Of a stretch of 33,614 nucleotides of DNA, positions 8,515 through 33,614 are shown piece by piece. The DNA is from a virus. Positions within the stretch are counted from its first letter, which is position 1. Each line of letters begins with the position of its first letter. Below the pieces are notes generated by a model. That model ran no database searches, was not told the origin of the DNA, and saw nothing but the letters and a program-made list of their open reading frames with translations. The stretch is from the IMG/VR virus record IMGVR_UViG_3300000052_000059, positions 1 to 33,614 of that record. One strand, given 5' to 3'. A program made the position numbers and the translations under genes.

Positions 8515-8592
8515 CCAAATGCCAAAATGTGGGAAAATAAAGGCGCTGAGTCTATCGGGCCACCAGCAGCTCACCATGAACAGGAGTTGCAC

Positions 8593-14504: not shown

Positions 14505-14516
14505 TAGGAACATTTT

Positions 14517-16364: not shown

Positions 16365-16377
16365 TAAAGGAAAAATC

Positions 16378-19907: not shown

Positions 19908-20110
19908 TTTTTCATATTTCGCACAAAAACTGCAAATGATGCTGCCGTATCTCCAAACGGAAGTTTCGCAAGTTCTTGAGCAACTTCTTCCAACACTTGG
20001 TTTCTTTGTGATGGAGAAACGAAAATATCAAAGTGATACGGCTGGCCGGACTTCATGGCATTTTCATGTTCAATGCGTTCGAACTCGTCATCTTCGTCAG
20101 TGTGAATCAT
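19904..20110 (-). CDS. Small acidic hypothetical protein (68 aa)
   Basis: ORF coupled at both ends. Starts MIHTDEDDEFERIEHE. Confidence 0.5.
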   Translation of the reverse strand: MIHTDEDDEFERIEHENAMKSGQPYHFDIFVSPSQRNQVLEEVAQELAKLPFGDTAASFAVFVRNMKK

Positions 20111-20340
20111 GTGTTATTTTCCTTAAGCACTCTTTCTGCCCATTCAGCACCAGCAAAAAATGTTTCTGTCTGATAGCGTATATCAGGTTTTTGAATTTCA
20201 TCTAAACCTACCCATTTGCGATGTGCTATTAACTTAGCAAAGGCTTCAAGATAGTGAATAAACTTTTTTCTGTCTAGGCCCATGCCGTACAGCGCTAAAC
20301 CTGATGCCTCTGCCATCTCAATGATTTCATCTTGTGTCAT
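20107..20340 (-). CDS. Hypothetical protein (77 aa from ATG 20340; the track version begins at TTG 20454)
   Basis: MTQDEIIEMAEASGL... is a typical small phage protein start. The 38-codon upstream extension is W/C/G-rich and begins at TTG, so the start is uncertain. Confidence 0.5.
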   Translation of the reverse strand: MTQDEIIEMAEASGLALYGMGLDRKKFIHYLEAFAKLIAHRKWVGLDEIQKPDIRYQTETFFAGAEWAERVLKENNT

Positions 20341-20497
20341 CTTGACCACCAAGTCACCAACAGTACGGCCAAACCAGCACCAATGGCAAAAGCCAGCACA
20401 TACCCAGCCACACGCTCCCAAAGTGGCTCCTCGCGGCCATAACCCTGTACCCAAGTACAGTCTGCAAAATTACGTGGTGTTTGAAAATTTGAATTTT

Positions 20498-20704
20498 TCA
20501 TAATTTTTTAATCCGATAATCTGCTTTGTTGAAGTCACCCATGTAGTTGTTTTTCACAGCATAAGTTAATTCGTTTAGAAAATCTGCAAGTTCTGCTTCT
20601 GCTGCTTCGTAAGTATCAAACTGTACTGGAGTGTCGTTCAATGAGTCTGACCAAGTGTTTTCCCATGTGTCGGGATGTGTCAGCGTTTGCACTTCGTAAG
20701 TCAT
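20498..20704 (-). CDS. Small acidic hypothetical protein (68 aa)
   Basis: Clean ORF with 13 Asp/Glu against 5 Lys/Arg by count. Confidence 0.5.
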   Translation of the reverse strand: MTYEVQTLTHPDTWENTWSDSLNDTPVQFDTYEAAEAELADFLNELTYAVKNNYMGDFNKADYRIKKL

Positions 20705-20706
20705 TT

Positions 20707-20877
20707 TTACCCCCCAAATGCTGTTATGTAGTCGTCTACGGCCTCTGATAAATTCTCAGCAGGCCACCAACTAGGCGCGGTGTCTTTTACATCTTGTGCA
20801 TCTGCATCACTGAATTTGTAGCCCAGCTTGTCAGCGTAGGCTTTTATGTCCTCAAGGCTTGCATCTGCTAGTTTCAT
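20707..20877 (-). CDS. Small acidic protein, 56 aa (MKLADASLEDIKAYADKLGYKFSDADAQDVKDTAPSWWPAENLSEAVDDYITAFGG); not in the ORF track
   Basis: It fills an otherwise empty 170-nt gap. Its ATG overlaps the upstream TGA (ATGA at 20874..20877), and its stop lies 2 nt before the next ATG. Confidence 0.5.
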   Translation of the reverse strand: MKLADASLEDIKAYADKLGYKFSDADAQDVKDTAPSWWPAENLSEAVDDYITAFGG

Positions 20878-21041
20878 AATTCTTCAATTTCCGTGTCTGT
20901 CCATTCACCATTGTGCAAATAGTCGCCTTCGTCATGTTGTAGTAATCCAAGGGCTATGTTCTCAGCATCAGCTTGGTCGGTAGCTTCTACGGTGTAATGA
21001 GCGTAGGTTTCATATTTGAATGTAACTTGATAGCTTTTCAT
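20874..21041 (-). CDS. Small strongly acidic protein (55 aa from ATG 21041)
   Basis: ATG 21041 overlaps the upstream TGA (ATGA). The track start 21107 lies inside the upstream gene. 13 Asp/Glu against 2 Lys by count. Confidence 0.5.
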   Translation of the reverse strand: MKSYQVTFKYETYAHYTVEATDQADAENIALGLLQHDEGDYLHNGEWTDTEIEEL

Positions 21042-21253
21042 GATATTTTTTTTACATAATTCATAGCATCTCGCCACATTAACCATGCATCTTCGATGGT
21101 TGGCCATGTGTAAGTTAGATCGACTACAGACTCAGTTGCGTTATCTTTGTTGGCTAAAAAATAAAGCACATCATCACGATTTCCGATAGAAATACATCGC
21201 ATGTATGAATCCATGAATGCTTTTTCCATCTCGTTAGGGGTATAAGTTTCCAT
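21038..21253 (-). CDS. Hypothetical protein (71 aa from ATG 21253)
   Basis: Start 21253 lies 13 nt after the upstream stop (21267). The longer track version overlaps the upstream gene. Confidence 0.45.
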   Translation of the reverse strand: METYTPNEMEKAFMDSYMRCISIGNRDDVLYFLANKDNATESVVDLTYTWPTIEDAWLMWRDAMNYVKKIS

Positions 21254-21266
21254 GGTTTGCAATGCC

Positions 21267-21473
21267 TTATTTTTCAAGCCTATAGAACCACTTTTCACCA
21301 CGACGCTGACAGTCAATTTCAAATCCATTCTGTCTAAGTTCCGAAATAATGCTATTTACTGCACAAACATTAGCGTTCTTGATGATGTCTAGGGTAGTAA
21401 ATTCACCACCCTGAGACAGCAAATCAAGCACACGATTCAGGCGTTCGCTACTTTCAATGCTGGCTGCGTTCAT
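21267..21473 (-). CDS. Small winged-helix DNA-binding protein (HTH_39-like), 68 aa
   Basis: RLNRVLDLLSQGGEFTTLDIIKNANVCAVNSIISELRQNGFEIDCQRRGEKWFYRL matches the recalled pattern of small phage wHTH proteins. Confidence 0.6.
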   Translation of the reverse strand: MNAASIESSERLNRVLDLLSQGGEFTTLDIIKNANVCAVNSIISELRQNGFEIDCQRRGEKWFYRLEK

Positions 21474-21482
21474 GTTGACCTC

Positions 21483-21725
21483 TTAAAATGGAATATCAGA
21501 TTCGTCATCAAACTGTGGTTTGCGATTTTCTTGAGGTTTTGGGTCATTAAGATATGCCCAACCATCCCAACCACCTTCACGCAGTGGAATATTGTCCAAT
21601 TTAAGCATCGGACCATTTTTTGTTTCAATGATTGAGCCGATTCTCTGGTAACGCTTTTTTGTCTGACCCTCGCTGTTGCGGTATTCACCAACGATGCAGG
21701 AAATTTCTTTACTTACTTTTGACAT
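21483..21725 (-). CDS. Mini SSB-like protein (80 aa) with a canonical SSB C-terminal tip DDESDIPF
   Basis: GGAGA SD before ATG 21725. The track start 21878 lies inside the exonuclease gene. The C-terminal acidic D-I-P-F tail resembles bacterial SSB. It sits in the ERF/exonuclease module. Confidence 0.55.
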   Translation of the reverse strand: MSKVSKEISCIVGEYRNSEGQTKKRYQRIGSIIETKNGPMLKLDNIPLREGGWDGWAYLNDPKPQENRKPQFDDESDIPF

Positions 21726-21726
21726 T

Positions 21727-22362
21727 TCATTCTCCAATGATTGATTTAAGGGAAATAACTTTGGCATCGACTTCTGCCAAAAATGTGATGACTTCATCAT
21801 CTGCGATCTTGAGCCAATCGGCATTGCGCTCGACTCGATAAACAAAAAGTTGTGCTTTGGCCGGCATCCGTGGGTCAAAAACTACGTAATCGCACCAAGA
21901 CCTGTTAGCGCAACGCATTTGCCACTGCATCTGTGCATAATATTTTGCGTCTACTGGATTGCCATTTTGTGCATGAGTTAACCAACATTCCAAAGCAGTG
22001 CTTGATGATGGGCATTTGATCTCGACCATGCCATCATCGCCCACCAATCCATCAGGAGACGCTCCAGCCGCCTCAATATCGGGGTGAGGTATAAACCCCA
22101 CTTCCTCAACCATTTGACCTGTGTGCGTCTCATAAGCAGCTCGAGCAAATGGTTCTTGTTCCGTACCCCACTGCATTGCAGCATTGGAATATGACTCAGC
22201 TCTGGTTTGGGTAATACGTTCAAGCACAAGTTGCGTCATGTAATTGGTACGGCTGGCGCTGTAACCAGTTTTTGTTTTGGCAAGCACATCAGCCAATCGG
22301 CTTGCGGTGACTTTGCCCAAGCGATTTGCAAACCAGCTTTCAGTTCCTTGTTCTTCGTTCAT
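21727..22362 (-). CDS. YqaJ-type (lambda Exo-like) recombination exonuclease, 211 aa
   Basis: GTESWFANRLGKVTASRLADVL...GASPDGLVGDDGMVEIKCP is the YqaJ/PD-(D/E)XK signature. Confidence 0.8.
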   Translation of the reverse strand: MNEEQGTESWFANRLGKVTASRLADVLAKTKTGYSASRTNYMTQLVLERITQTRAESYSNAAMQWGTEQEPFARAAYETHTGQMVEEVGFIPHPDIEAAGASPDGLVGDDGMVEIKCPSSSTALECWLTHAQNGNPVDAKYYAQMQWQMRCANRSWCDYVVFDPRMPAKAQLFVYRVERNADWLKIADDEVITFLAEVDAKVISLKSIIGE

Positions 22363-22919
22363 GCTGTTTTCTCCTGTTTAGCACGCTCGACTCGTGCTTT
22401 CTTTGCTGCAATCACTTTTGCCTGGAGTCCCTGATTGCCTTCGCAAGCTGCAAGTGCGTCTTTATAGGCCTTTGCCAGCTCATCGCTGTTGCCACTAGCC
22501 TCAATTGCCGCCAGATGGTCAGTAATGTCAGGTGTAGGAATTGGCTTGCGTGTAGCAGCATTTCCGTCATCGTCCTCTGGAGCGATGCCACAAGCCGCCA
22601 TGAGGCTATATCTCCGAGCATAAGTCAAAGCACTACCGTAACCCTGAGGGTCTTGTTTGCTTGCTGGTACATGCAATTTGCCACATTCCAGCATCTCGCC
22701 TGATTCGTGAATAAATACAGTCTCTACTGTGACTCCGTTCATGTCTTCGCTTGTTCTTTGAATCATGGCAATGCCAGCTTCGTTTAAACCCTCAATGACA
22801 GCCTCTACGCAAGCACTTAGGTCTGCATATTTGCTTTTGAAATGCGGATTGGTAGATGATTTAAGAGCTGGCCCAAAGGCCTTTTGTGCCTTAACCAATG
22901 CAGTGGCGATATTTTTCAT
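22359..22919 (-). CDS. erf: ERF-family single-strand annealing protein, 186 aa
   Basis: ALVKAQKAFGPALKSSTNPHFKSKYADLSACVEAV...YGSALTYARRYSLMAACGIAPEDDD are typical ERF motifs. ATGA coupled to the exonuclease gene. Confidence 0.8.
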   Translation of the reverse strand: MKNIATALVKAQKAFGPALKSSTNPHFKSKYADLSACVEAVIEGLNEAGIAMIQRTSEDMNGVTVETVFIHESGEMLECGKLHVPASKQDPQGYGSALTYARRYSLMAACGIAPEDDDGNAATRKPIPTPDITDHLAAIEASGNSDELAKAYKDALAACEGNQGLQAKVIAAKKARVERAKQEKTA

Positions 22920-23095
22920 TTGTTACTTTCTAAAATTTCTGTTGTTTTGCCGAATAGAACTATTTCACATACGTTGTTCAAACCATCTTTGATGTAGATA
23001 TGTTTGACCAAGTATTCCGTTCCGTCTGTATGAGCGCAGACTGTTTCTTTTGTAGTTGTGGAAACTACGTCATGAATAAAATGAGTTGTTTTCAT
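22916..23095 (-). CDS. Hypothetical protein (59 aa from ATG 23095)
   Basis: GGAGAGG lies 6 nt before ATG 23095. The track start 23158 lacks an SD. Confidence 0.45.
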   Translation of the reverse strand: MKTTHFIHDVVSTTTKETVCAHTDGTEYLVKHIYIKDGLNNVCEIVLFGKTTEILESNK

Positions 23096-23179
23096 GCTTA
23101 ACCTCTCCATGCCAAAAGAACACCCCAGCCGCCAAAAATAATGATGGCCAAGGTGCATTCAATTAAAGTTGTGATGATC

Positions 23180-23452
23180 TTAGATTTCATTGCGGTCTTT
23201 CTGGATTTGATAAAAGTCAGCTTTAGCTTCTTGCATTAGGCGTTTGTATTCATCATTAGGAATGTCGTAAGTGATGTGATTGTCTTTAGCATCAAACACA
23301 AACACATCAAACATTTCCGCATAGTTATGATCGTGGGGATAGTTGATTTCTTCAGGGTAGTAGTCATAACCAACTTTGACGGTTTCAACTGTTTCGCCAT
23401 CGTCAAAAGAAACAACATCATCAAAATAGTATTGGAGTTTGATTTCAATCAT
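23180..23452 (-). CDS. Strongly acidic hypothetical protein (90 aa)
   Basis: Clean ORF with 22 Asp/Glu against 8 Lys/Arg by count. Confidence 0.5.
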   Translation of the reverse strand: MIEIKLQYYFDDVVSFDDGETVETVKVGYDYYPEEINYPHDHNYAEMFDVFVFDAKDNHITYDIPNDEYKRLMQEAKADFYQIQKDRNEI

Positions 23453-23461
23453 GATGACCCC

Positions 23462-23659
23462 TTAAGCGTATACAGCGTGGTGCATTTCGTAATAGGCTTG
23501 AGCATCTTCTGGAGTTGATGCTTCCCATTCACGGCAAATAGCAACCTCGTGACCATTGTTAAAAACAGCAATCCAAGCGGCAGGGATTGTGCAATTTAAG
23601 CGGTGATTGAAGTATTCAGCCTGAAGGTAAACTTCGGTGATTTCGAATTGTTTGCGCAT
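23462..23659 (-). CDS. Hypothetical protein (65 aa), first gene behind promoter module A
   Basis: AGGAG SD in the conserved leader ctatttaggagaaatcaaaATG. Confidence 0.5.
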   Translation of the reverse strand: MRKQFEITEVYLQAEYFNHRLNCTIPAAWIAVFNNGHEVAICREWEASTPEDAQAYYEMHHAVYA

Positions 23660-23705
23660 TTTGATTTCTCCTAAATAGACCCCAAGAAGTTCGGGGCATG
23701 TGTGT

Positions 23706-23733
23706 ATTGTATAGCGTTCTAAACAAGAATCAA
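23706..23733 (-). promoter_or_regulatory. Leftward promoter module A (TTGATT-N16-TACAAT on the minus strand)
   Basis: -10 at 23706..23711 and -35 at 23728..23733. The whole module of about 110 bp is duplicated at 24766..24880. Confidence 0.45.
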
Positions 23734-23751
23734 CAGTTTTTTATCTTTTTT

Positions 23752-23771
23752 TATTAGGACTTTCCCTAATA
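23752..23771. promoter_or_regulatory. Operator-like perfect inverted repeat TATTAGG-N6-CCTAATA (copy A)
   Basis: 7-bp arms read directly, 18 nt upstream of the -35 of module A and separated from it by an A-tract. Confidence 0.45.
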
Positions 23772-23775
23772 CGAT

Positions 23776-23789
23776 GAGGCCGAAGCCCC
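23776..23789 (-). terminator. Stem-loop downstream of the DUF932-like gene (GGGGC-UUCG-GCCUC on the minus strand, one G-U pair); no U-tract
   Basis: Read directly, 7 nt after the stop at 23797. It shares the GGGGCTTCGGCC core of the two strong plus-strand terminators but lacks a T-run, so it may attenuate or stabilise the transcript. Confidence 0.35.
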
Positions 23790-23796
23790 ATCTGTA

Positions 23797-24765
23797 TCAA
23801 GCCAATAAAAGTGATTCTGCTTCTGACTTCAGTCGGTTGCCATTGCCAAACCAAGCATTGTTCATGCGTGTATCTACGTTATGGCCTCGCTCATGGTCAA
23901 TGTATTGAGTCACCGCATTCAGCAAACCCCATCGTGTACCGTAAACGCCACTTTCTTGCGCTCCGATTCCAGCACCATCAAACAGTTCTAAAACACGCTT
24001 AAAGCCTCTAGATTCTTTGTAGGTTTGTGTTTGTGGGTCAAAGATTGCAGGGAATAATTCACTGACAAAACCTTTTGCATATCCGCTTGAAACACCAATT
24101 CGAGCAAGCGATCTGTATTTGTCCATCATTCCATCGAAGCCACCAACAATGATGCCGAGACGTTCACGCATCAGGCTTGCATCAAAGTCTGTGCCATGGG
24201 TCAACATCACGCGACTTGGTGAAGTCTCCGTATCAGCCGCAGAAAGTGTGTTATTGCACACAACTCGGATGCTGGTGAATTGACCGATCGTTGCAGCCGA
24301 ACCGTCAAATGATGTACTAAGAAGCAAATAACCTTTTACAGCATCATCATTAAGAACCACTGATTCTTTGTTGACATTTGCCAATGCCCAGATGCGCTTG
24401 CCGCCTTTTATCGCCCCTGCAACTTCAAGAGTAAAACCAGCCGATTGCACAAGCGTATTAAAAAAGTCCAAAACATCAGCTGGCTGGTGGATTTTGTAAC
24501 GATCTGAAACTACACCAAGTGGGATTTTGTTGTCATTGCGAAAAATTACATTTTTGTTTTCCACTTGTTGTGGTGCAGCAAGACCTTCAGGCCAAAACAT
24601 TACTGGAGAGACTTGTGCCTCCCAATCAAGTCCAGCCTCTTTGCGCCACACATCAATTGGTGCGTCTTGGGTAAGCTGTTGACCAAGACCATGCCAGGGA
24701 GTTTTGTTCGCGTATGCGATTTCTGCTTTGCCTGTTTGTGTGTTGTTTTCGATTAAATGTGCCAT
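23797..24765 (-). CDS. DUF932 / TIGR03299-like phage-plasmid protein (322 aa)
   Basis: The N-terminus AHLIENNTQTGKAEIAYANKTPWHGLGQQL and overall size match the recalled DUF932 family. It has its own promoter module. Confidence 0.6.
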   Translation of the reverse strand: MAHLIENNTQTGKAEIAYANKTPWHGLGQQLTQDAPIDVWRKEAGLDWEAQVSPVMFWPEGLAAPQQVENKNVIFRNDNKIPLGVVSDRYKIHQPADVLDFFNTLVQSAGFTLEVAGAIKGGKRIWALANVNKESVVLNDDAVKGYLLLSTSFDGSAATIGQFTSIRVVCNNTLSAADTETSPSRVMLTHGTDFDASLMRERLGIIVGGFDGMMDKYRSLARIGVSSGYAKGFVSELFPAIFDPQTQTYKESRGFKRVLELFDGAGIGAQESGVYGTRWGLLNAVTQYIDHERGHNVDTRMNNAWFGNGNRLKSEAESLLLA

Positions 24766-24812
24766 GATTTCTCCAAATAGACCCTTATGCGAAATTGCTA
24801 GGGCATGTGTGC

Positions 24813-24840
24813 ATTGTATATCTTTCTAAACAAGAGTAAA
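24813..24840 (-). promoter_or_regulatory. Leftward promoter module B (TTTACT-N16-TACAAT on the minus strand)
   Basis: -10 at 24813..24818 and -35 at 24835..24840. Paralogous to module A, including the conserved leader and SD. Confidence 0.45.
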
Positions 24841-24858
24841 TAATTAATGCGATATTTT

Positions 24859-24878
24859 TATTGGTACTTTCCCTAATA
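24859..24878. promoter_or_regulatory. Operator-like inverted repeat, copy B (TATTGGT-N6-CCTAATA, two mismatches in one arm)
   Basis: Same position relative to promoter B as copy A has to promoter A. It lies in the divergent control region. Confidence 0.4.
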
Positions 24879-24881
24879 CAG

Positions 24882-24896
24882 ATACAAAGTTTGTAT
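24882..24896. promoter_or_regulatory. Perfect palindrome ATACAAA-G-TTTGTAT overlapping a TATAGT -10-like hexamer
   Basis: Read directly. TATAGT at 24894..24899 ends 12 nt before the Cro-like ATG. Confidence 0.4.
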
Positions 24897-24910
24897 AGTA
24901 AAATGCACCG

Positions 24911-25069
24911 ATGTCAAAAAATGATGCAATTACAAAAGCTGGTTCACAAGCTGCCCTTGCAAGGTTGCTTGGTGTGACTCGAGGTGCTGTTTCTCAATGG
25001 AAACAGCTTCCAAAAGGTCGTCTGTATCAGCTCATGGTCATAAAGCCAGAATGGTTTGAGAAGATATAA
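24911..25069 (+). CDS. Cro/YdaS-like HTH regulator, 52 aa (MSKNDAITKAGSQAALARLLGVTRGAVSQWKQLPKGRLYQLMVIKPEWFEKI); not in the ORF track
   Basis: GSQAALARLLGVTRGAVSQW is the classic Cro/YdaS HTH. It is the first gene of the rightward operon. No SD was seen. Confidence 0.65.
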   Translation: MSKNDAITKAGSQAALARLLGVTRGAVSQWKQLPKGRLYQLMVIKPEWFEKI

Positions 25070-25172
25070 TTTTTGAAACACGGCTAGGTCTGAAGTCATG
25101 AGCAGATCGAAAAGGGTTACACCTTCCCCTGCCGAGGTTTCTTCACAAAGGTGCTGAAAAAGGTAAAACTTA

Positions 25173-25943
25173 ATGCATTACTACACATTCAATATCGGTG
25201 ACTATCGAGGTGCTACTGCACACCTATCAAATGAGGAAGATCTTGCTTATAGAAGACTCCTCGATATGTACTACGACACAGAAAAAAAAATCCCAGTAGA
25301 TAGCCAATGGGTTGCCAGACGCTTACGTTTGGATACCAAAGTGATTGATGATGTTTTAACTGATATGTTTGAAAAACATGAGGATGGTTGGTTTCATGCT
25401 CGTTGTCATGAGGTGATTGGTCAATATCATGCAATGGCAGAAAAAAATAGGATGAATGGTAAGTTAGGAGGTAGAAAAAAGAACCCAGTGGGTATCCCAG
25501 TGGATACCGACTCGGAACCCATCGCTAAGGCAACTATAAACCAAGAACTAATAACCAATAACCAACTAAATACCAATATATGTCCACCTGACGGTGAACC
25601 TGAGGAAAAATTACCTGATTGTGAACACAAAGCAGTTATCAGTCTCTACCATCAACACTTGCCAACACTGAGGAAGGTAGAAGTCTGGAATACAACCAGA
25701 CATGGTTACTTACGACAAAGGTGGCGAGAGGTCGCAATTGAACTATCGCAAGGAAAAACCATACAGACTGATGATGTGCTTAACTGGTGGGAAGACTTTT
25801 TCAAGCACATTGGACATTCAAAGTTCTTAACTGGCAAAGTCAACAGCAAAGATGGTCGAGCATTCACTGCCGATCTTGAGTGGATTCTGAAACCAAGCAA
25901 TTTCGCAAAAATCGTAGAAGGTAAATATCATGGCGCTAACTAA
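25173..25943 (+). CDS. Replication initiation/organiser protein, DUF1376 (YdaU-like) N-terminal domain, 256 aa
   Basis: YYTFNIGDYRGATAHLSNEEDLAYRRLLDMYYDTEKKIP is the DUF1376 signature. The C-terminal FLTGKVNSKDGRAFTADLEWILKPSNFAKIVEGKY is typical of phage replisome organisers. Confidence 0.75.
   Translation: MHYYTFNIGDYRGATAHLSNEEDLAYRRLLDMYYDTEKKIPVDSQWVARRLRLDTKVIDDVLTDMFEKHEDGWFHARCHEVIGQYHAMAEKNRMNGKLGGRKKNPVGIPVDTDSEPIAKATINQELITNNQLNTNICPPDGEPEEKLPDCEHKAVISLYHQHLPTLRKVEVWNTTRHGYLRQRWREVAIELSQGKTIQTDDVLNWWEDFFKHIGHSKFLTGKVNSKDGRAFTADLEWILKPSNFAKIVEGKYHGAN
25484..25590. repeat. Ori-like repeat block inside the replication gene linker
   Basis: Tandem CCCAGTGG(G/A)TA(T/C)C x2 contains the palindrome GGTATCC-N4-GGATACC (25491..25508). 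An AT-rich tract with four A(T/A)A(A)ACCAA copies follows (25536..25580). Confidence 0.45.
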
Positions 25944-26686: not shown

Positions 26687-27012
26687 AACCAGAAGAAGCA
26701 GCTCAAACTATTAGGGACAAAGCACCAGCCTACGGAGAGGCCAAAGCACAAAGGGTATATCTTGAAGAATTTCGCAAGTCCAAAAAAGCACTTCTCATGA
26801 AAGACGCACTCAAACTTGGCGTGGAAGCAGCCAATGCACAGGAACGTGAAGCATATGCAGACCCTGCTTATCACCAGTTAATCAAAGGTCTGGCACTAGC
26901 AATCGAACAAGAAGAGACCTTAAAGTGGGAACTGGAAGCCGCAAGGCTGGACATAGAAATATGGCGTACAAGGGAAGCAACCAATCGAATGCAAGACAGG
27001 TCGCATCAATGA
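26683..27012 (+). CDS. Coiled-coil hypothetical protein (109 aa)
   Basis: ATGA-coupled ORF with a charged helical sequence. Confidence 0.5.
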   Translation: MKPEEAAQTIRDKAPAYGEAKAQRVYLEEFRKSKKALLMKDALKLGVEAANAQEREAYADPAYHQLIKGLALAIEQEETLKWELEAARLDIEIWRTREATNRMQDRSHQ

Positions 27013-27323
27013 TTCCGAAACACCCGTATGTCAGAAGCAAAAAACTTCTAAAACTCGTAGCAAGTCTCGATTGTCAACTTTGTGGGTCAGGTCATTTTGT
27101 CCAGGCAGCACATACAAATTGGGGTGGCGGTAAAGGCCGAGGCATCAAAGCTGACGATAATCTTACTGCCGCACTTTGTATGACTTGCCATTACGACATT
27201 GACCAAGGAGCGAAATGGTCAAAAGAGGAAAGGCAGCAAGCGTGGCAAGTAGCGCATTACAAAACAGTTCAGTTATTGGTAGACAGTGGCCAATGGCCTG
27301 TTGACATACCTATACCTATATAG
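27009..27323 (+). CDS. YbcO/DUF1364-like Cys-His protein (104 aa from ATG 27009)
   Basis: CQLCGSGHFVQAAHTNWGGGKGRGIKADDNLTAALCMTCHYDID matches the recalled DUF1364 pattern. ATG 27009 overlaps the upstream TGA. Confidence 0.55.
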   Translation: MIPKHPYVRSKKLLKLVASLDCQLCGSGHFVQAAHTNWGGGKGRGIKADDNLTAALCMTCHYDIDQGAKWSKEERQQAWQVAHYKTVQLLVDSGQWPVDIPIPI

Positions 27324-27329
27324 CAAAAT
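27301..27329 (+). promoter_or_regulatory. Candidate late promoter TTGACA-N17-CAAAAT
   Basis: A perfect -35 at 27301..27306, a 17-nt spacer and -10 CAAAAT at 27324..27329. It sits about 30 nt upstream of a strong terminator. Confidence 0.35.
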
Positions 27330-27360
27330 AAACACACTGACAAATGCAGTTGCCAGTTTT

Positions 27361-27381
27361 GGGGCTTCGGCCCCTTTTTTT
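27361..27381 (+). terminator. Rho-independent terminator between the early-right and late genes
   Basis: GGGGC-TTCG-GCCCC followed by TTTTTTT. Confidence 0.85.
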
Positions 27382-27390
27382 AAGGACATC

Positions 27391-28179
27391 ATGAATCCAG
27401 CAGATAAAGTCGAAAAATGGTCTATTGATAAGCTCATTCCTTACGCACGCAACTCACGCACGCACTCTGATGAGCAAGTGGCACAGATTGCTGCAAGTAT
27501 CAAGGAATGGGGCTGGACAACACCTGTATTGGTTGATGAACAAGGCGGCATTATTGCCGGACACGGTCGCACACTAGCAGCTCAAAAGCTCAATATAAAA
27601 GAAGTACCTGTAATGGTGGCCACAGGATGGAGCGATGCCAAGAAACGCGCTTACATCATTGCTGACAACAAACTAGCCTTAAATGCAGGTTGGGATGAGC
27701 AAATGCTGGCGCTTGAACTTTCAGAACTGCAAGACCTTGGTTTCGATTTGAAATTAACTGGATTTGATAAAAATGAATTAGATGAAATATTTGCTGATGA
27801 AGTACAGCTAATAGATCCAAATAATCCTTACACATCAAAAATCAAAACCCCGATTTATGAGCCACAAGGTAAGAAACCATCTGTAGAAGAACTCTATGAT
27901 GATTCTAAAGCAATGGAATTAATACTTGCAATTCGGGAAAGCAAGCTAAATGATAAAGAAAAACAATTTTTAATGACAGCTGCTTCTCGTCATGTTGTTT
28001 TTGACTATTCGAAAATTGCTAATTTTTATGCTCATTCTTCGAGAGAATGTCAGGAACTTATGGAGAATAGTGCTTTAGTGATTATTGATTTCAATAAAGC
28101 AATAGAAAATGGTTTTGTTCGATTAACAGAAGAAATCAATACCATGTTTGAACACGTTGAAGTCGAGGAAAATGAATAA
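27391..28179 (+). CDS. ParB N-terminal (ParB/Srx nuclease-like) domain protein with an unrelated low-GC C-terminal domain (262 aa)
   Basis: AAGGA SD before ATG 27391. The track start 27286 would read through the terminator. IPYARNSRTHSDEQVAQIAASIKEWGWTTPVLVDEQGGIIAGHGRTLAAQKL is a ParB-NTD signature. Confidence 0.75.
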   Translation: MNPADKVEKWSIDKLIPYARNSRTHSDEQVAQIAASIKEWGWTTPVLVDEQGGIIAGHGRTLAAQKLNIKEVPVMVATGWSDAKKRAYIIADNKLALNAGWDEQMLALELSELQDLGFDLKLTGFDKNELDEIFADEVQLIDPNNPYTSKIKTPIYEPQGKKPSVEELYDDSKAMELILAIRESKLNDKEKQFLMTAASRHVVFDYSKIANFYAHSSRECQELMENSALVIIDFNKAIENGFVRLTEEINTMFEHVEVEENE

Positions 28180-29125
28180 CGACTACATTTTCGTTAGGCA
28201 TGGTCAAACCTATTGGAATAAAAATGGGATTATGCATGGCCAATATGACATTCCGTTAAATTTCACTGGTATCAAGCAAGCAAAAAAAATATCAGAAGAA
28301 CTAAAAACGAATCATTTTGACATTTGTTTTTGCTCTCCATTACAAAGAGCAAAATCAACAGCATTTAGTATTTTAATTAATCATAAAAACACAAGAATTT
28401 TTTATGATGAAAGATTGAAAGAATTAAGCAAAGGATTGTTAGAAGGTAAGCATCTAAATAGTGAAAAATTGCTTAAGGATGAGAATTTGAATTTTTTACG
28501 CAAGTTCAACATCGAAAGCAAAATGGACTTTTTTTATAGAGTCAAATCATTTATTAATGATGTTGAAAAAAGATATAGAGGTAAAAGAATACTGATTGTC
28601 GCTCATAGCGGAACTATCAAAATGTTGTTCTTTGCTTTTAATTTCCCCAAAAAACCTTTGCACAAAGCGTATTACGACTTGCATATAAAAAACTGCAAAG
28701 CGTACAAAGTTGATTCAATCAAACTAGGAGCATCAAAAATGAAGATAGGTTTTTTCCCAATGGTTGCAGATATCCTGCACTCTGGCCATGTCTTAGCTTT
28801 AGAAGAAGCAAAAAAGCATTGCGACTTTTTAATTGTCGGCCTCCACTGCAATCCGAATTACAAAACTACCCAGCAATCAATCTATGAGCGCTACATGCAG
28901 CTACGTGCCGTCAAATGGGTAGATGAAGTCATCCCTTATGAAAACTCCGTTAAGGACAAAGACGTTTTCGTATCTCTTGATTACGATGTGTATTTTCTAG
29001 GCGAAGATCATAAAAGCGATGATTGGGAGCTAAAAGATACAGTTGAAAATTTGGAAAAAGAAATTGTGTATCTAAAAAGAAAACATAGCTTCAGCAGCAG
29101 CAAGATCAAAAATGACAGTAAGTAA
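28172..29125 (+). CDS. Fusion protein: histidine phosphatase (PGAM branch) + TagD/ECT/CCT-like cytidylyltransferase (317 aa; alternative start 28148)
   Basis: N-terminal domain motifs: FVRHGQTYWN, SPLQRAKSTA, VAHSGTIKM. C-terminal domain motifs: ADILHSGH, AVKWVDEVIPY, VYFLGEDH, SFSSSKIK. GAGGA SD before ATG 28172. Confidence 0.75.
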   Translation: MNNDYIFVRHGQTYWNKNGIMHGQYDIPLNFTGIKQAKKISEELKTNHFDICFCSPLQRAKSTAFSILINHKNTRIFYDERLKELSKGLLEGKHLNSEKLLKDENLNFLRKFNIESKMDFFYRVKSFINDVEKRYRGKRILIVAHSGTIKMLFFAFNFPKKPLHKAYYDLHIKNCKAYKVDSIKLGASKMKIGFFPMVADILHSGHVLALEEAKKHCDFLIVGLHCNPNYKTTQQSIYERYMQLRAVKWVDEVIPYENSVKDKDVFVSLDYDVYFLGEDHKSDDWELKDTVENLEKEIVYLKRKHSFSSSKIKNDSK

Positions 29126-30014
29126 CAACTATGCTGTTTTCATCCTGTCTCATGGCAGGCCTGACAACGTAATAACCTATGGCCAACTCAGGCGGCATGG
29201 TTATACAGGCAAAATTTTTATCATTGTTGACGACGAAGATAAGACCATTGATCAATACAAAGAAAAATATGGTGATCAAGTCATTGTTTTCAGTAAAAGC
29301 GAATATCAAGACAAGTTCGACATCATGGACAACTTTGCTGGCAACAAAGTCATTGTCTATGCTCGAAACGCTTGTTATGACATAGCACGAAATCTGAAGT
29401 TAGATTACTTTTTTGAGTACGAAGACGATTACACATCGTTTCAATACAGGTATGTCGAAAATTTCGCACTTAAAGCTAAAGTAGTAAGAAACCTAGATAC
29501 GATATTTGATTCAATGATCAAATGTTTAGATGAGACAAAGGCACACACAATAGCATTTGCTCAAGGTGGCGATTTCATTGGTGGAGCTACATCGTTTGAA
29601 AATAACACTTACAAAAGAAAAGCAATGAACAGCTTTGTCTTTAAAGTCAACAAAGACCCATCGGATGACATCATCTTTGTCGGGCGAATGAATGATGACG
29701 TCAATACCTATTTAACGCAAGGCAGAGTCGGTAAGCTGTTTTGCCAAATTACGGCTATAAATTTGGTTCAGCTTGCAACACAATCAAACTCTGGAGGAAA
29801 TACAGAGGCCTACAAATCATTCGGCACTTATGTGAAATCATTCTATAGCGTGATGGCTGCACCGGATTGTTGTAGCATTGATTTGATGGGTAGAACGCAT
29901 AAACGAATTCACCATAGGATTAGTTGGAACAACGCAGTACCCAAAATTCTTAATGAGCAACACCGTAAACCAAGGCTTTTATCGCGATTCACCAGCACGA
30001 TTCAGGAGATGTAA
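29112..30014 (+). CDS. GT-A-like transferase candidate (300 aa); family assignment tentative
   Basis: An alternating strand-helix N-terminus carries SHGRP, IVDDED, FEYEDDY and RMNDDVN acidic motifs, reminiscent of DxD glycosyltransferases (TAGT/GREB1-like by recollection). Low GC. Confidence 0.4.
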   Translation: MTVSNNYAVFILSHGRPDNVITYGQLRRHGYTGKIFIIVDDEDKTIDQYKEKYGDQVIVFSKSEYQDKFDIMDNFAGNKVIVYARNACYDIARNLKLDYFFEYEDDYTSFQYRYVENFALKAKVVRNLDTIFDSMIKCLDETKAHTIAFAQGGDFIGGATSFENNTYKRKAMNSFVFKVNKDPSDDIIFVGRMNDDVNTYLTQGRVGKLFCQITAINLVQLATQSNSGGNTEAYKSFGTYVKSFYSVMAAPDCCSIDLMGRTHKRIHHRISWNNAVPKILNEQHRKPRLLSRFTSTIQEM

Positions 30015-30016
30015 CT

Positions 30017-30430
30017 ATGGCCAAAACTGAAAAATCGGTATTAAAAAAGGTTGGACCTAATGGCGGTGCTAGACCAGGTGCTGGTCGTAAACCTTTTGAA
30101 CCTACAGATGATGAGCGCAAACAGGTCGAAATCATCTCTGGCTATGGTTTACCCTTAGAACAAATCGCAGTCCTAATTCGTGATGGAATTGACGCTGATA
30201 CCCTGCGTAAGTACTTTTCCACAGAACTGCAATCAGGCAAAGCCAAGGCCAATGCACAGGTTGGAAAAACTTTATTTCAGAAAGTTATGGCAGGAGATAC
30301 AACAGCAGCCATCTGGTGGAGCAAGACGCAAATGCGCTGGTCGGAGGTGCAAAAACACGAGCTGACTGGAGCAGACGGTGCGCCTTTAGAATTTTCCAAA
30401 ATTGAGCGTGTTGTTGTAAAAAATGGGTAA
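30017..30430 (+). CDS. terS: Terminase small subunit (137 aa)
   Basis: Immediately upstream of TerL and overlapping it by 8 nt. GRKPFEPTDDERKQVEIISGYGLPLEQIAVLI is a typical TerS HTH region. Confidence 0.7.
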   Translation: MAKTEKSVLKKVGPNGGARPGAGRKPFEPTDDERKQVEIISGYGLPLEQIAVLIRDGIDADTLRKYFSTELQSGKAKANAQVGKTLFQKVMAGDTTAAIWWSKTQMRWSEVQKHELTGADGAPLEFSKIERVVVKNG

Positions 30431-31649
30431 AACCCTACAAATTCAGACCCCAGAATGGGCGTTGCCATTGCTAGAAGGCAAGCGATACAAAGGTGCATGG
30501 GGTGGCCGTGGTTCTGGCAAATCTCATATGTTTGCCGAACTTATGATCGAAATGCACATCATGGATCAGAAACGCAGAAGCGTTTGTGTGCGTGAAATAC
30601 AAAAATCTTTGAATCAATCGGTAAAGCGATTACTGGAGACAAAGATCGAACAAATGAACGCTGGCGCTTATTTTGAAGTTCAAGATGCTGTCATCAAATC
30701 CAAAAAGGGCGATGGTGCAATTATTTTTCAGGGGATGCAGAATCACACTGCCGACTCGATCAAATCGCTTGAGGGTTACGACTGCGCTTGGGTAGAGGAG
30801 GCTCAAAGCCTAAGTCAAACCAGCCTCGACCTATTACGGCCAACCATCCGCAAACCAGACTCCGAACTGTGGTTCACATGGAATCCGCGCCAACAGAACG
30901 ACCCTGTGGATTTTCTACTACGTGGGCCAGAACCGCCAAGCGATGCTGTAGTAATTAAAGTAAATTTTGGTGATAACCCTTGGTTTCCGCAAGTCTTAAA
31001 AGACGAGATGGAGTACGACAAACGCAGAGACCCTGACAAATATCAGCATGTTTGGATGGGGCAATACTTAAGAAACAGCAATGCAAGGGTATTTAAAAAC
31101 TGGAAAATCGATGATTTCGAAGCACCACCAGATGCAATTCACCGTCTAGGTGCTGACTGGGGTTTCTCAGTTGATCCAACAGTGTTGGTGCGATGCCACA
31201 TTATTGGCCGCACTCTATACATTGACTACGAGGCCTACATGGTCGGATGCGAGATCGTCAACACGCCTGAGTTGTTTATGCAAGTACCAGAGTCTGAAAA
31301 ATGGCCAATCGTGGCTGACTCAGCAAGGCCAGAGACAATCAGTCACATGAAAAAGAATGGATTTCCTAAGATTATGAATGCGGTCAAAGGACCAAAATCA
31401 GTTGAGGAAGGCATCGAGTTTTTGAAGAACTACGATATTGTGGTTCACCCAAGATGCACACACACAATTGACGAACTAACGCTGTACAGTTATAAGCAAG
31501 ACCCATTAACTGGCAAAATCTTGCCTATGCTCGATGATAAGAAAAACCATGTAATCGATGCATTGCGCTACGCCTGTGAAGCTGTCAGACGTGCATCAGT
31601 AACAAAACCAGTGACATTCACTCCATTGCCAACTATGCACAAATGGTGA
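30423..31649 (+). CDS. terL: Terminase large subunit (PBSX/Terminase_3 type), 408 aa
   Basis: Walker A GGRGSGKSH, Walker B-like DCAWVEEAQ, and the nuclease-domain motifs GADWGFSVDPT and KNHVIDALRYA. Confidence 0.9.
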   Translation: MGKTLQIQTPEWALPLLEGKRYKGAWGGRGSGKSHMFAELMIEMHIMDQKRRSVCVREIQKSLNQSVKRLLETKIEQMNAGAYFEVQDAVIKSKKGDGAIIFQGMQNHTADSIKSLEGYDCAWVEEAQSLSQTSLDLLRPTIRKPDSELWFTWNPRQQNDPVDFLLRGPEPPSDAVVIKVNFGDNPWFPQVLKDEMEYDKRRDPDKYQHVWMGQYLRNSNARVFKNWKIDDFEAPPDAIHRLGADWGFSVDPTVLVRCHIIGRTLYIDYEAYMVGCEIVNTPELFMQVPESEKWPIVADSARPETISHMKKNGFPKIMNAVKGPKSVEEGIEFLKNYDIVVHPRCTHTIDELTLYSYKQDPLTGKILPMLDDKKNHVIDALRYACEAVRRASVTKPVTFTPLPTMHKW

Positions 31650-31677: not shown

Positions 31678-33614
31678 ATGGCCCGAATCTCGAACGATCA
31701 ACGCCTTGCTAACCTACACGATGAAGCATTAGCACAGTTTGATGATGTCCAAAGCGCACTTCGCGATGAACGACTACAGTGCCTTCAAGACAGACGCTTC
31801 TACTCTTTAGCAGGCAGTCAGTGGGAAGGCCCACTCTGGGATCAGTACGAAAACAAACCCAAGTTCGAGGTCAACAAGATCATGCTGGCCGTGATCCGAG
31901 TGGTCAATGAATATCGAAACAACCGCATTACGGTCGACTTTGTCTCTAAAGATGGCGCTGAGAACGACAAACTAGCAGAGGTCTGCGATGGTCTATACCG
32001 AGCAGACGAGCAAGCATCTGTGGCCGATGAAGCCTACGACAATGCCTTTGAGGAAGCTGTCGGTGGTGGAATTGGTGCATGGCGTTTACGCACAGTCTAT
32101 GAAGATGAGGAAGATCCAGACGACGACCGTCAACGCATCCGCATAGAACCAATCTTTGATGCTGACAGTTCTGTATTCTTTGACTTACAGGCAAAGCGTC
32201 AAGATAAAGCAGACGCTAAATTCTGTTTTGTCGTCACATCGATGACGCGCCAAGCCTACAAAGACACATGGGGCGATGACCCAACTGATTGGCCAAAGAT
32301 CATTCACCAGTACGAATTTGACTGGTGCACACCCGATGTGGTCTATGTTGCTGAGTATTACAAAGTCGAGGAAAAAACCGAAACAATCCGAATTTTCCAA
32401 ACCATCACAGGCGAAGAAGAACGCTACACAAAAGCAGACTTTGACAATGATGAAATGCTTGAGGAAACTCTTGAGGCCATCGGAACAGTTGAGGTTCGAC
32501 AGCGCAGAATTAAAACCAAGCGTGTGCACAAATACATCATGTCTGGCGGCAAAGTTCTGGAAGATGCAGGCTACATTGCAGGCAAGTGCATCCCGATTGT
32601 GGTTGTTTATGGCAAACGCTGGTTTGTTGACAATGTTGAACGATGCATGGGTCATGTGCGTTTAGCCAAGGATGCCCAGCGCCTCAAAAATATGCAGCTT
32701 TCGAAACTTGGTGAAATCAGCGCCTTGTCATCAGTAGAAAAGCCAATCCTCACGCCTGAACAGGTAGCTGGCCACCAAGTCATGTGGGCTGAGGACAATC
32801 TCAAAGATTATCCATATTTGCTGATTAACCCGATCACAGACCAAAACGGCAACCAAGCAGTAAGTGGTCCGGTGGCCTACACTCGATCGGCAGCCATACC
32901 ACCAGCAATGGCCGCACTCTTGCAGATCACAGAAACTGACATGCAAGACATTTTGGGTAATCCAGCTGGTGCTGACAAGATGGTTAGCAACATTTCTGGC
33001 AAAGCTGTCGAAATGATTCAAGCCCGAGTTGATGGCCAAGCATTTATTTACATGAGCAACTTTGCCAAAGGAATGAAACGATGCGGTGAAATTTGGCTCT
33101 CGATGGCCAAAGACATCTACACCGAAGACAAACGCAAAATGAAGACGATTGCGCCAACTGGTGAGGCTGGAATGGTCGAACTTATGAAACCTTCAATTGA
33201 TCAGGAAACTGGTGCAGTTGTTCTTGAGAACGACCTCACATCTGCTACTTTCGATGTGATTGCAGATGTTGGACCATCGAGCAGCACCAAACGTCAGGCA
33301 ACCGTTCGCGCTCTGACAGGCATGCTCCAGATCACTCAAGACCCAGAGACAGCCCAAGTGCTGACTGCAATGGCCATGATGAATATGGAGGGCGAGGGTG
33401 TTGGAGATGCCAATGCCTATTTCCGCAAAAAGCTACTGCGCATGGGCGTAGTCAAGCCAACCGACATGGAGGCCGAAGAACTCATGGCCGAAATGCAGGG
33501 CCAGCCACAAGACCCGAATGCCATGTACCTGCAAGCCGCAGCCGAGAATGAGACTGCCAAGGCAGCCAAAGCCCGAGCCGATACCGTCGAAACCGTGGCC
33601 AGCGCAGAACTTAA
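31678..33614 (+). CDS. Portal protein, P22 gp1-like; the ORF is open at the window end and closes at 176 via the overlap (about 686 aa in total)
   Basis: GAGGA SD. Absent from the ORF track because there is no stop in the window. By-eye matches to recalled P22 portal blocks: GGGIGAWRLRTVYEDEE, YYKVEEKTET, IPIVVVYG, HVRLAKDAQRLKNM, DYPYLLIN, DVGPSSS. Confidence 0.9.
   Translation, partial: MARISNDQRLANLHDEALAQFDDVQSALRDERLQCLQDRRFYSLAGSQWEGPLWDQYENKPKFEVNKIMLAVIRVVNEYRNNRITVDFVSKDGAENDKLAEVCDGLYRADEQASVADEAYDNAFEEAVGGGIGAWRLRTVYEDEEDPDDDRQRIRIEPIFDADSSVFFDLQAKRQDKADAKFCFVVTSMTRQAYKDTWGDDPTDWPKIIHQYEFDWCTPDVVYVAEYYKVEEKTETIRIFQTITGEEERYTKADFDNDEMLEETLEAIGTVEVRQRRIKTKRVHKYIMSGGKVLEDAGYIAGKCIPIVVVYGKRWFVDNVERCMGHVRLAKDAQRLKNMQLSKLGEISALSSVEKPILTPEQVAGHQVMWAEDNLKDYPYLLINPITDQNGNQAVSGPVAYTRSAAIPPAMAALLQITETDMQDILGNPAGADKMVSNISGKAVEMIQARVDGQAFIYMSNFAKGMKRCGEIWLSMAKDIYTEDKRKMKTIAPTGEAGMVELMKPSIDQETGAVVLENDLTSATFDVIADVGPSSSTKRQATVRALTGMLQITQDPETAQVLTAMAMMNMEGEGVGDANAYFRKKLLRMGVVKPTDMEAEELMAEMQGQPQDPNAMYLQAAAENETAKAAKARADTVETVASAEL
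33563..33614. repeat. Terminal overlap, copy 2 (identical to 1..52)
   Basis: Direct comparison of the window ends. Confidence 0.9.

Follow-up and report, generated by a model that had tools for sequence, protein, structure and literature searches.

Phage DNA glycosylation, as known so far, requires a 5-hydroxymethyl (or 5-hydroxy) pyrimidine, and most phage genes of the GT-A/TAGT type are found without a partner able to provide it, a point left unexplained in recent papers. About 65% of the phage contigs with glycosyltransferase genes lack the thymine dioxygenases 5mYOX and also ThyS, and 288 of 753 glycosyltransferase-encoding phages contain 'solitary' TAGTs of undefined function (PMC13216743; bioRxiv 10.1101/2023.12.21.572611). 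This work deals with a TAGT gene and its two neighbours in a viral DNA of 33,614 nucleotides (nt; IMG/VR record IMGVR_UViG_3300000052_000059, positions 1 to 33,614; the window means hereafter this whole stretch). Three co-oriented genes, placed at 27391..30014 of the plus strand immediately before the terminase genes terS and terL, encode a ParB-like protein (gene 1), a histidine phosphatase::cytidylyltransferase fusion (gene 2) and a TAGT-family transferase (gene 3). The reading favoured below, with a probability of about 0.6, is that the three genes form a DNA-modification pathway in which gene 2 acts as the supplier of the donor.

Comparison with described systems

Phage 5mYOX dioxygenases are active on double-stranded DNA only together with a cognate ParB whose two domains are both retained (O'Toole et al., PNAS 2026, PMC13229309), and a neighbourhood of ParB, GT-A and terminase genes is known from the 5mYOX literature (PMC13229309; bioRxiv 10.1101/2023.12.21.572611). 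PMC8256090 relays an older suggestion that modification enzymes are guided to DNA by ParB at the time of packaging. The cassette of the window resembles the ParB-dependent 5mYOX clusters (PMC13229309) in having an orphan ParB, composed of a nucleotide-binding N-domain and a C-domain, with no helix-turn-helix (HTH) detected by Pfam, which is encoded by the side of a putative post-replicative DNA-modifying enzyme, often by the terminase, and which shows signs of cognate-specific pairing; in sibling phages the same N-domain even precedes a Tet_JBP gene. It differs from them in that the partner is a glycosyltransferase, that no dioxygenase was found in the genome and that the ParB C-domain is specific to the glycosyltransferase.

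The TAGT family includes the beta-glucosyl-HMC-alpha-glucosyltransferase of T2/T6 and the 5mYOX-associated GT-A enzymes, and these characterised members all act on DNA (PMC13216743; bioRxiv 10.1101/2023.12.21.572611). The 5mYOX-associated enzymes are structurally akin to the base-J glucosyltransferase (JGT), and an active-site pattern R...DDD...EDY/F is found in phage DNA GT-A enzymes and in JGT (bioRxiv 10.1101/2023.12.21.572611). Gene 3 shares with the phage enzymes the Pfam and PHROG family and the R...DDD...EDY motifs, and is likewise placed near ParB and terminase genes. The kinship is at the family level only, the nearest relatives of known function being too distant for the comparisons made. 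The characterised TAGTs use 5-hydroxymethylcytosine (5hmC), 5-hydroxymethyluracil (5hmU) or glucosyl-hmC as acceptors, and no source of such an acceptor was found here.

Concerning the synthesis of the donor, the precedent is the heptosyl-5hmC pathway of contig-53, where a HAD-APH bifunctional enzyme, a CTP_transf protein and a glycosyltransferase are all required; pairs of epimerase and glycosyltransferase have also been found to be interdependent (bioRxiv 10.1101/2023.12.21.572611). Both the contig-53 pathway and the cassette contain a phosphatase, a PF01467 nucleotidyltransferase and a DNA glycosyltransferase in succession, with a donor made by the phage. However, in contig-53 a HAD phosphatase is fused to a kinase, whereas here a histidine phosphatase is fused to the transferase without any kinase; the glycosyltransferase is GT-A here and GT-B there, and neither a methylase nor a TET protein accompanies it here.

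Finally, prophage fusions of a ParB N-domain to a DNA methyltransferase (phrog_498; PADLOC MTase_II; PF02195+PF01555) contain the same N-domain, lie also upstream of terS and are alleles of the locus studied here. In those fusions the effector is covalently bound to the N-domain, whereas here it is a separate protein that would be recruited through a dedicated C-domain. It can be said that ParB-associated post-replicative glycosylation of phage DNA is of a known kind, and that the putative donor-synthesis fusion is new. The literature search yielded no description of a phage histidine phosphatase::cytidylyltransferase fusion, and none of a ParB-TAGT pair that functions in the absence of 5mYOX. 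A preliminary description, made from the sequence of the window, had considered the system as undescribed; this holds for the fusion and for the putative action without a source of 5-hydroxymethylpyrimidine, but not for the neighbourhood of ParB, GT-A and terminase, nor for the succession of phosphatase, CTP_transf and glycosyltransferase, which were known.

Alternative modification genes in sibling phages

The locus was compared in 79 viral contigs of IMG/VR (L173-L251; other loci are also cited by L numbers), in which the gene 1 N-domain is 79-100% identical and TerL 76-99.8% identical to those of the window. The stretch between the N-domain and terS contains an N6/N4 DNA methylase fused to the N-domain in 28 of the 79 loci, TAGT alone in 23, a C5 cytosine methylase in nine, a Mom-family protein in five, TAGT with a radical SAM/SPASM protein in another five, a Tet_JBP dioxygenase in three, TAGT with the phosphatase::cytidylyltransferase fusion (the present arrangement) in three, and combinations in the remaining three. 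Every alternative to TAGT is thus an established DNA base-modifying enzyme, and TAGT and TET never occur together in the 79 loci. The locus (27391..30016 in the window) can be described as a hypervariable hot spot of DNA modification built around a shared ParB N-domain. The lineage is a natural experiment, with one locus and one ParB N-domain where methylase, Mom, TET-JBP and TAGT genes are interchangeable; by this interchange, TAGT appears to be a stand-alone DNA-modification allele.

Since the allelic alternatives are all DNA-modifying, DNA is clearly favoured as the target of gene 3. The preliminary description had considered targets in virion proteins or in the host envelope at least as likely, an estimate that does not survive the assignment of gene 3 to the TAGT family and the methylase, Mom and TET-JBP alleles of the sibling phages.

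A protein target deserves nevertheless to be weighed: the transferase could decorate a packaging or virion protein (terminase, portal, capsid or ParB itself), ParB being merely a scaffold at the packaging site. The glycosylation of virions by phage-encoded glycosyltransferases is known in mycobacteriophages and chloroviruses. The genes keep very strictly to the order ParB-TAGT-terS-terL in phages of Proteobacteria, Firmicutes, Bacteroidota and Actinobacteria, and a haloarchaeal pair lies a few kilobases upstream of terL; a capsid glycosyltransferase of PBCV-1 is, besides, a structural neighbour of some phage GT-A enzymes (bioRxiv 10.1101/2023.12.21.572611). Such a target is quite unlikely, though, in view of the DNA-modifying nature of all the alternatives, of the fusion of the same N-domain to DNA methylases, and of the lack of relationship among the terminases found downstream in different phages, which makes a specific protein acceptor improbable.

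Two kinds of additional neighbours were observed. The radical SAM/SPASM protein is a 318-aa open reading frame (ORF) located after TAGT in L181, L182, L204 (2943-3899), L210 and L251. In L070 (4958-5800), an unrelated radical SAM gene and an ADP-ribosyltransferase-like gene are directly upstream of ParB-TAGT-cytidylyltransferase. These neighbours might tailor the sugar or prepare the base.

The cassette as an exchanged unit

The order ParB, fusion, TAGT was constant in 60 of 60 viral or metagenomic loci with the cassette. These loci span several phage backbones, and genes 1-3 are the only genes of the window common to all of them; even the terminase that follows varies, with TerL being 27-99% identical to that of the window or belonging to another Pfam family. 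The borders of the exchanged block were located by blastn against the sibling L172, which is 84-88% identical up to 27765 and 78% identical from 30076 on, with no possible alignment in between. The cassette of L172 has a different ParB C-domain (45% identity) and a different TAGT (49%), and lacks gene 2. From these breakpoints, the swapped unit is composed of the ParB C-domain, gene 2 and gene 3 (27766..30075, plus strand, which includes also the first approximately 60 nt of terS), and it coincides with a stretch of low G+C content (GC).

The GC fraction is 0.464 in the genome, 0.320 in the region of the ParB C-domain, 0.334 in gene 2, 0.389 in gene 3 and 0.453 in terL. The dip was present in 32 of 32 related loci tested, with a mean of 0.361 in the cassette versus 0.470 in the flanks. 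These data support that the three genes are one functional unit and that the block is exchanged horizontally. The preliminary description had pointed out the low GC, proposed a horizontal acquisition and taken the genes for parts of one pathway; the composition, the breakpoints and the survey of fusion homologues, respectively, agree with it.

Gene 3, a TAGT-family transferase

Gene 3 (29112..30014, plus strand; 300 aa) matches the Pfam family TAGT (PF20691) with E 1e-33 and 117.5 bits versus a cut-off of 27.5, its residues 7-228 covering positions 1-204 of the 205 of the profile, and it matches phrog_842 with E 6e-66. Residues R16, D40-D41-E42-D43 and E104-D105-D106-Y107 are invariant in 29 sequences, and these motifs (R, DDED, EDDY) fit the R...DDD...EDY/F pattern of the phage DNA GT-A enzymes. 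The Foldseek search with a poor AlphaFold2 (AF2) model of gene 3 gave as best matches the GT-A proteins ColGalT1, SpsA, GnT-I, glycogenin and TarS, with E values from 3e-5 to 1e-3 and a TM-score around 0.3. The alignments used for AF2 held close homologues only, which resulted in poor models of gene 3 and of the gene 1 C-domain; a broad TAGT alignment was too divergent to serve as a search query. Taken together, the family match and the invariant motifs support that gene 3 encodes a GT-A-type transferase; it had been considered a possible transferase from its acidic motifs, and no assignment to a non-transferase family arose.

Gene 2, a phosphatase::cytidylyltransferase fusion

Gene 2 (28172..29125, plus strand) encodes 317 aa from an ATG; the mechanically delimited ORF opens at a TTG in 28148, and the database homologues begin at the ATG. 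Its first domain (about 28187..28711, plus strand) is a branch-1 histidine phosphatase, matching His_Phos_1 (PF00300) with E 9e-37 and 127.1 bits over residues 14-188. The second (about 28769..29113, plus strand) is a TagD/ECT/CCT-type cytidylyltransferase, matching CTP_transf_like (PF01467) with E 7e-14 over residues 208-322. The phosphatase motifs RHG, SPLQRAKSTA and AHSG are present, and VRHGQT and AHSGT are conserved among the aligned homologues. Concerning the transferase, the motifs HSGH, VKWVDEVIPY and SSSKIK are invariant or nearly so in 25 homologues, and R303, H305, S308 and S309 are invariant in the region RKHSFSSS. The catalytic residues of both domains are intact. The two-domain fusion and its motifs had been correctly read in the preliminary description, as had the TagD/ECT/CCT type of the second domain.

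That type is indicated by the comparison with structures of the Protein Data Bank (PDB), where the transferase domain scored 53.8 bits with TagD (1COZ), 44.6 with ECT (3ELB) and 25.5 with several CCT structures, rather than with adenylyltransferases of nicotinamide mononucleotide (NMN) or flavin mononucleotide (FMN). As in TagD/ECT/CCT, the sequence contains HxGH, (R/K)(Y/W)VDEVIP and a C-terminal RxxxxS(S/T)(S/T), the motifs HSGH, KWVDEVIPY and RKHSFSSS corresponding to HxGH, RYVDEVI and RTEGISTT of the cytidylyltransferase group. Unlike TagD, it is fused to a phosphatase, it has the lysine-rich loop shortened to NPNYK and it stays far below the equivalog cut-off; unlike TagD, ECT and CCT alike, it occurs in a context of phage DNA modification and not of envelope synthesis. 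The score with TIGR01518 (glycerol-3-phosphate cytidylyltransferase) was 56.3 bits, below the equivalog cut-off of 165.4; that with TIGR02199 (heptose-1-phosphate nucleotidyltransferase) was 48.2 versus 181.5; and the phosphatase was also under equivalog level, with 97.9 for CobC versus 162.9. As these cut-offs are not reached, the substrate of gene 2 cannot be assigned as glycerol-3-phosphate, even if the source databases label its homologues 'glycerol-3-phosphate cytidylyltransferase'.

A nucleoside diphosphate-heptose route, in which a GmhB analogue and an HldC-like enzyme would act on heptose-1,7-bisphosphate of the host, was considered because of phrog_7878 and of the contig-53 precedent, and was downgraded. 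Heptose nucleotidyltransferases (HldC and HldE domain II, or 'HENases') carry the motif (F/L)xxGxSTT (PMC11461863). Unlike the contig-53 enzyme, the gene 2 transferase lacks this motif, ranks with TagD/ECT/CCT and matches HldC (5X9Q) with only 15 bits (E 0.16), so heptose is not a favoured donor.

Fusions homologous to gene 2 are abundant in metagenomes (>355). In a scan of 185,579 species genomes no close homologue of the fusion was found, but only distant single-domain relatives, whose neighbourhoods (Sphingobacterium, Zambryskibacteria) were uninformative. Relatives of the transferase with 35-37% identity (L074-L083, viral contigs of 19-276 kb) were also examined and set aside as uninformative on the cassette; they lie in other sugar-nucleotide contexts, next to a DegT aminotransferase or a HAD-NTP-transferase. 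PADLOC gave no match for genes 2 and 3.

The relationship between genes 2 and 3 can be appreciated in the table of compared loci, where TAGTs at least 60% identical to gene 3 are always accompanied by a cytidylyltransferase and those at most 51% identical never are; outside that table, L072, L117 and L122, with TAGTs of 51-59% identity, carry a cytidylyltransferase too. A cytidylyltransferase alone accompanies ParB-TAGT in L068, L069, L071, L073 and L117. In L072 (7258-8408) and L122 (3780-7303), a stand-alone cytidylyltransferase is accompanied by an HD phosphohydrolase, adjacent and upstream in L072; in L122 the HD gene is two genes upstream of ParB, and the cytidylyltransferase comes after TAGT. 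The HD phosphohydrolase is presumably a non-homologous stand-in for the fused histidine phosphatase. L167 contains a sugar epimerase dependent on nicotinamide adenine dinucleotide between ParB and TAGT. Given that the slot of gene 2 is filled elsewhere by a lone cytidylyltransferase, by an HD phosphohydrolase with a cytidylyltransferase or by an epimerase, the most likely role of gene 2 by analogy is to supply the donor for gene 3. As gene 2 would be a private donor-synthesis enzyme, its product is probably none of the UDP-sugars common in hosts.

L072 and L122 come from larger phages, with DNA polymerase and beta-clamp genes of their own. In L005 (6739-8421; also in L173, 4001-5683), a contig 98% identical to the window, ParB and gene 2 form a single 560-aa ORF (P0141), which may be either a true three-domain fusion or a frameshift error; if the fusion is real, ParB would be physically tied to donor synthesis.

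Two other interpretations of gene 2 have to be weighed against the supply of a donor for DNA modification. In one, the cassette would remodel the host envelope (teichoic acid, lipopolysaccharide or capsule) with a donor of the CDP (cytidine diphosphate)-glycerol type, for superinfection exclusion or release, as the prophage enzyme TarP could illustrate. TagD, which makes CDP-glycerol for teichoic acid, is indeed the enzyme that the gene 2 C-domain resembles most, the database name of gene 2 goes in the same direction, and TarP is reported as the PDB structure nearest to phage GT-A enzymes (bioRxiv 10.1101/2023.12.21.572611). Even so, this interpretation is very unlikely: no signal peptide or membrane-associated feature was noticed in gene 3; the module heads the late packaging operon, away from an attachment site, in a genome where no integrase was found; the hosts of phages with ParB-TAGT are variously Gram-negative, Gram-positive and archaeal, and have no envelope acceptor in common; and the pairing with ParB would have no rationale.

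In the other, gene 2 would be an unrelated metabolic 'moron', e.g. for nucleotide or cofactor salvage, and gene 3 would use an ordinary host UDP (uridine diphosphate)-sugar. Many phages carry ParB-TAGT without gene 2, which is also the gene with the lowest GC of the block. It is to this proposal that we grant the least credence, because the linkage is kept in 60 of 60 loci over different backbones, with overlapping stop and start codons; because the TAGT clade of at least 60% identity occurs only with a cytidylyltransferase; because one contig has ParB and gene 2 in the single 560-aa ORF; because non-homologous phosphatases and an epimerase occupy the same or neighbouring slots elsewhere; and because the PDB ranking is led by TagD, ECT and CCT, not by NMN, FMN or PPAT enzymes.

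Gene 1, a ParB-like protein

Gene 1 (27391..28179, plus strand; 262 aa) matches phrog_620 over its full length (E 5e-67). Its N-domain (27391..27795, plus strand), with the ParB/Srx (ParB-CTPase) fold, gives the sole Pfam match of the protein, to ParB_N (E 1e-6), and no HTH DNA-binding domain was detected. The N-domain matches the N-terminus of the ParB::DNA methyltransferase families (phrog_498, E 5e-55; PADLOC MTase_II, E 9e-44), and residues G57-H58-G59-R60 and D92-N93 are invariant in the alignment of homologues. The AF2 model is confident for residues 1-135 (predicted local distance difference test, pLDDT, 80-93), and its Foldseek matches are Noc, ParB and KorB. A disordered linker joins this domain to the C-domain (27871..28179, plus strand; GC 0.32), a helical region of about 100 aa, conserved and without any family match.

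In the 79 loci with the N-domain, the ParB C-domain and TAGT always go together, neither being found without the other. Between the window and L172 the C-domain is 45% identical and the N-domain 83%. The identity of the C-domain tracks that of TAGT with r = 0.86, a correlation drawn from related, non-independent sequences, and the N-domain co-varies with the phage backbone. So, gene 1 is the chimera that the preliminary description had recognised, with one domain following the backbone and the other following the glycosyltransferase. The co-variation of C-domain and TAGT agrees with the published finding that the dioxygenases depend on both ParB domains and on a cognate partner (PMC13229309). 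It seems reasonable to interpret that the C-domain is probably a docking domain for gene 3, and that the N-domain behaves as a backbone-linked adaptor module, common to the methylase, Mom and TET alleles of the sibling phages.

Source of the acceptor base and the ParB-TAGT core

The window begins and ends with an exact terminal repeat of 52 nt (1..52 = 33563..33614), which indicates a complete circular genome of 33,562 bp. In this genome Pfam detected no Tet_JBP, C5-methylase, ThyS-like hydroxymethylase or kinase, as the preliminary description had anticipated for all but the C5-methylase, and a tblastn search with the TET, Mom, C5-methyltransferase and radical SAM proteins of the lineage itself gave a best E of 0.16 (0.82 for the sibling TET). 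This leaves a novel acceptor or else a partner concealed in one of the unannotated ORFs, e.g. 17985..18596 or 8527..9042.

The core formed by ParB and TAGT is widespread. Its order with respect to the terminase, ParB-TAGT-terS-terL, was conserved in 56 of 56 loci with a TAGT identity of 48-59%. As a two-gene core directly upstream of terminase genes it was found in phages of Escherichia/Salmonella, Lactobacillus, Porphyromonas and Nocardia; the next gene in Nocardia phage NTR1 is terL, and in Haloarcula virus HHTV-2 terL is about 3 kb downstream. In lambdoid prophages of E. coli the pair stands alone between lysis genes or trkG and terS. There it consists of ynaK (ParB/Srx family) and a TAGT gene annotated as 'hypothetical protein', it is present in 1,580 of 5,426 complete genomes, and it sits by trkG and the terminase genes of Rac-like prophages (e.g. 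L001, 5217-6933). No functional study of ynaK/ydaY was found in the literature. Thanks to the prophage pair, the question can be addressed directly in a model organism.

A hidden first step would reconcile these facts with the known chemistry: glycosylation of DNA would be confined to 5hmU or 5hmC, formed by a dioxygenase or hydroxymethylase too divergent to be recognised and with its gene outside the cassette, in a base-J-like manner. Every characterised relative works in this way, several ORFs of the window are unannotated, and the 5mYOX paper describes thousands of contigs with a 5mYOX that escapes the Pfam TET_JBP model. Nevertheless, the complete genome gave no match with the Pfam or lineage TET/JBP, TAGT and TET are alternatives in the 79 sibling loci, no gene beyond genes 1-3 is common to the 60 cassette loci, and the lambdoid prophage pair of E. 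coli also stands alone. A hidden first step is therefore unlikely, and a cryptic oxidase elsewhere in the genome is disfavoured. The gene arrangements provide new and clear genetic evidence that the TAGT allele may operate without TET/JBP.

A bolder proposal is that the pair of ParB C-domain and TAGT is a self-sufficient modifier, able to place a glycosyl or CDP-derived group on an unoxidised position of DNA, e.g. the exocyclic amine of A, C or G, with the CDP donor coming from the fusion in the present case. This is tentative and, in our estimate, rather doubtful. If it were true, it would represent a new class of DNA hypermodification, and a widespread one, given that the core is found in phages of at least five phyla.

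Proposed pathway

The sequence dephosphorylation, nucleotidylation and transfer, put forward in the preliminary description, is the best-supported reading. In the pathway favoured here, the module would be expressed late and would be self-contained, modifying post-replicatively the phage's own DNA. The ParB-CTPase N-domain of gene 1 would engage DNA in the manner of ParB clamps and of the thymine dioxygenases that depend on ParB, and the C-domain would recruit the cognate transferase. The histidine phosphatase of gene 2 would trim a phosphorylated host metabolite, and the cytidylyltransferase would join the product to cytidine monophosphate (CMP), yielding a CDP-linked donor. Gene 3 would then transfer the activated moiety to DNA, no later than packaging, and as a result the genome would probably be shielded from host nucleases. 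From the domain content and the gene neighbourhoods we infer that gene 2 feeds gene 3, that the phosphatase acts before the transferase, that ParB loads the enzyme on DNA, and also the biological role and which metabolite is trimmed. Candidate donors are a CDP-sugar (heptose or hexose from a sugar bisphosphate), with heptose not favoured, or a CDP-polyol-phosphate.

Several observations weigh against this pathway. Only context points to DNA as the target. The characterised TAGT/GT-A DNA enzymes all need a hydroxyl acceptor (5hmC, 5hmU or a sugar on DNA), whose source was not found here. The transferase is nearest to enzymes that activate phospho-alcohols, and CDP-alcohols are phosphotransfer donors, a poor fit to glycosyl transfer by a DxD GT-A enzyme. 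The AF2 model of gene 3 has a mean pLDDT of 53.6 and is confident only for residues 1-150, and that of the gene 1 C-domain, helical as it is, has a pLDDT below 50, so that neither model bears on docking or on DNA binding. The relatedness of the sequences compared bears likewise on the correlation between C-domain and TAGT.

Once identified, the product may turn out to be a DNA modification not seen before, and to add to the substrates of type IV restriction or of glycosylase defences. The system could also show a general role of orphan ParB proteins as loaders of DNA-modifying enzymes.

Layout of the genome and the locus

The Pfam scan identified a P22 portal, a P22 coat protein, gp4-like and gp10-like proteins and a beta-helix tailspike, by which the genome can be classified as that of a P22-like podovirus. 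The portal gene (from 31678) spans the junction of the circle and encodes 686 aa once joined. No integrase or recognisable repressor was detected by Pfam in the complete genome, and the recombination genes ERF and YqaJ are present; the phage may be virulent, or have an unrecognised lysogeny module. A megablast search of the region against phage and E. coli collections gave no match.

Directly upstream of the cassette and the terminase genes there is an HNH endonuclease gene (26925..27323; phrog_131, DUF968-like). An HNH gene beside the terminase is typical of the HNH-assisted terminases of HK97-like cos phages; the present genome has P22-type head genes. A promoter-like site (TTGACA, 17-nt spacer, CAAAAT; 27301..27329, plus strand) lies at the 3' terminus of the HNH gene, with some 30 nt between it and the terminator downstream; it coincides with the consensus in 10 of 12 positions, which is a consensus match only, as such sites are not enriched with respect to shuffled sequences. 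The terminator-like element (27361..27381, plus strand) is the hairpin GGGGCTTCGGCCCC, with five G-C pairs and a TTCG loop, followed by T7; the scan of the genome gave four such sites versus 3.2 expected from shuffles, i.e. no overall enrichment. Directly 3' of the hairpin there is a ribosome-binding site AAGGA and then the ATG of gene 1 at 27391. An alternative GTG start of gene 1 at 27286 would cross the terminator and is ignored by gene callers. The promoter-like site and the terminator (27301..27381) recall the lambdoid pair of late promoter and terminator that is passed by antitermination; no Q-like antiterminator was identified in the window.

Downstream of the hairpin, genes 1 and 2 overlap by 8 nt and genes 2 and 3 by 14 nt, and 2 nt separate gene 3 from terS (30017..30430, plus strand), which is followed by terL (30423..31649, plus strand); both are the constant downstream context of the module. 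The three genes are translationally coupled, and the arrangement of three overlapping co-oriented genes between a strong terminator and terS is as it had been described.

Since two other low-GC stretches occur (14001..16500 and 19501..25500, with 0.37-0.43 versus 0.46-0.55), the cassette is not the sole compositionally atypical part of the genome. The first covers the gene for the beta-helix tailspike (14517..16364), and the second the leftward early region with ERF, the YqaJ exonuclease and DUF932.

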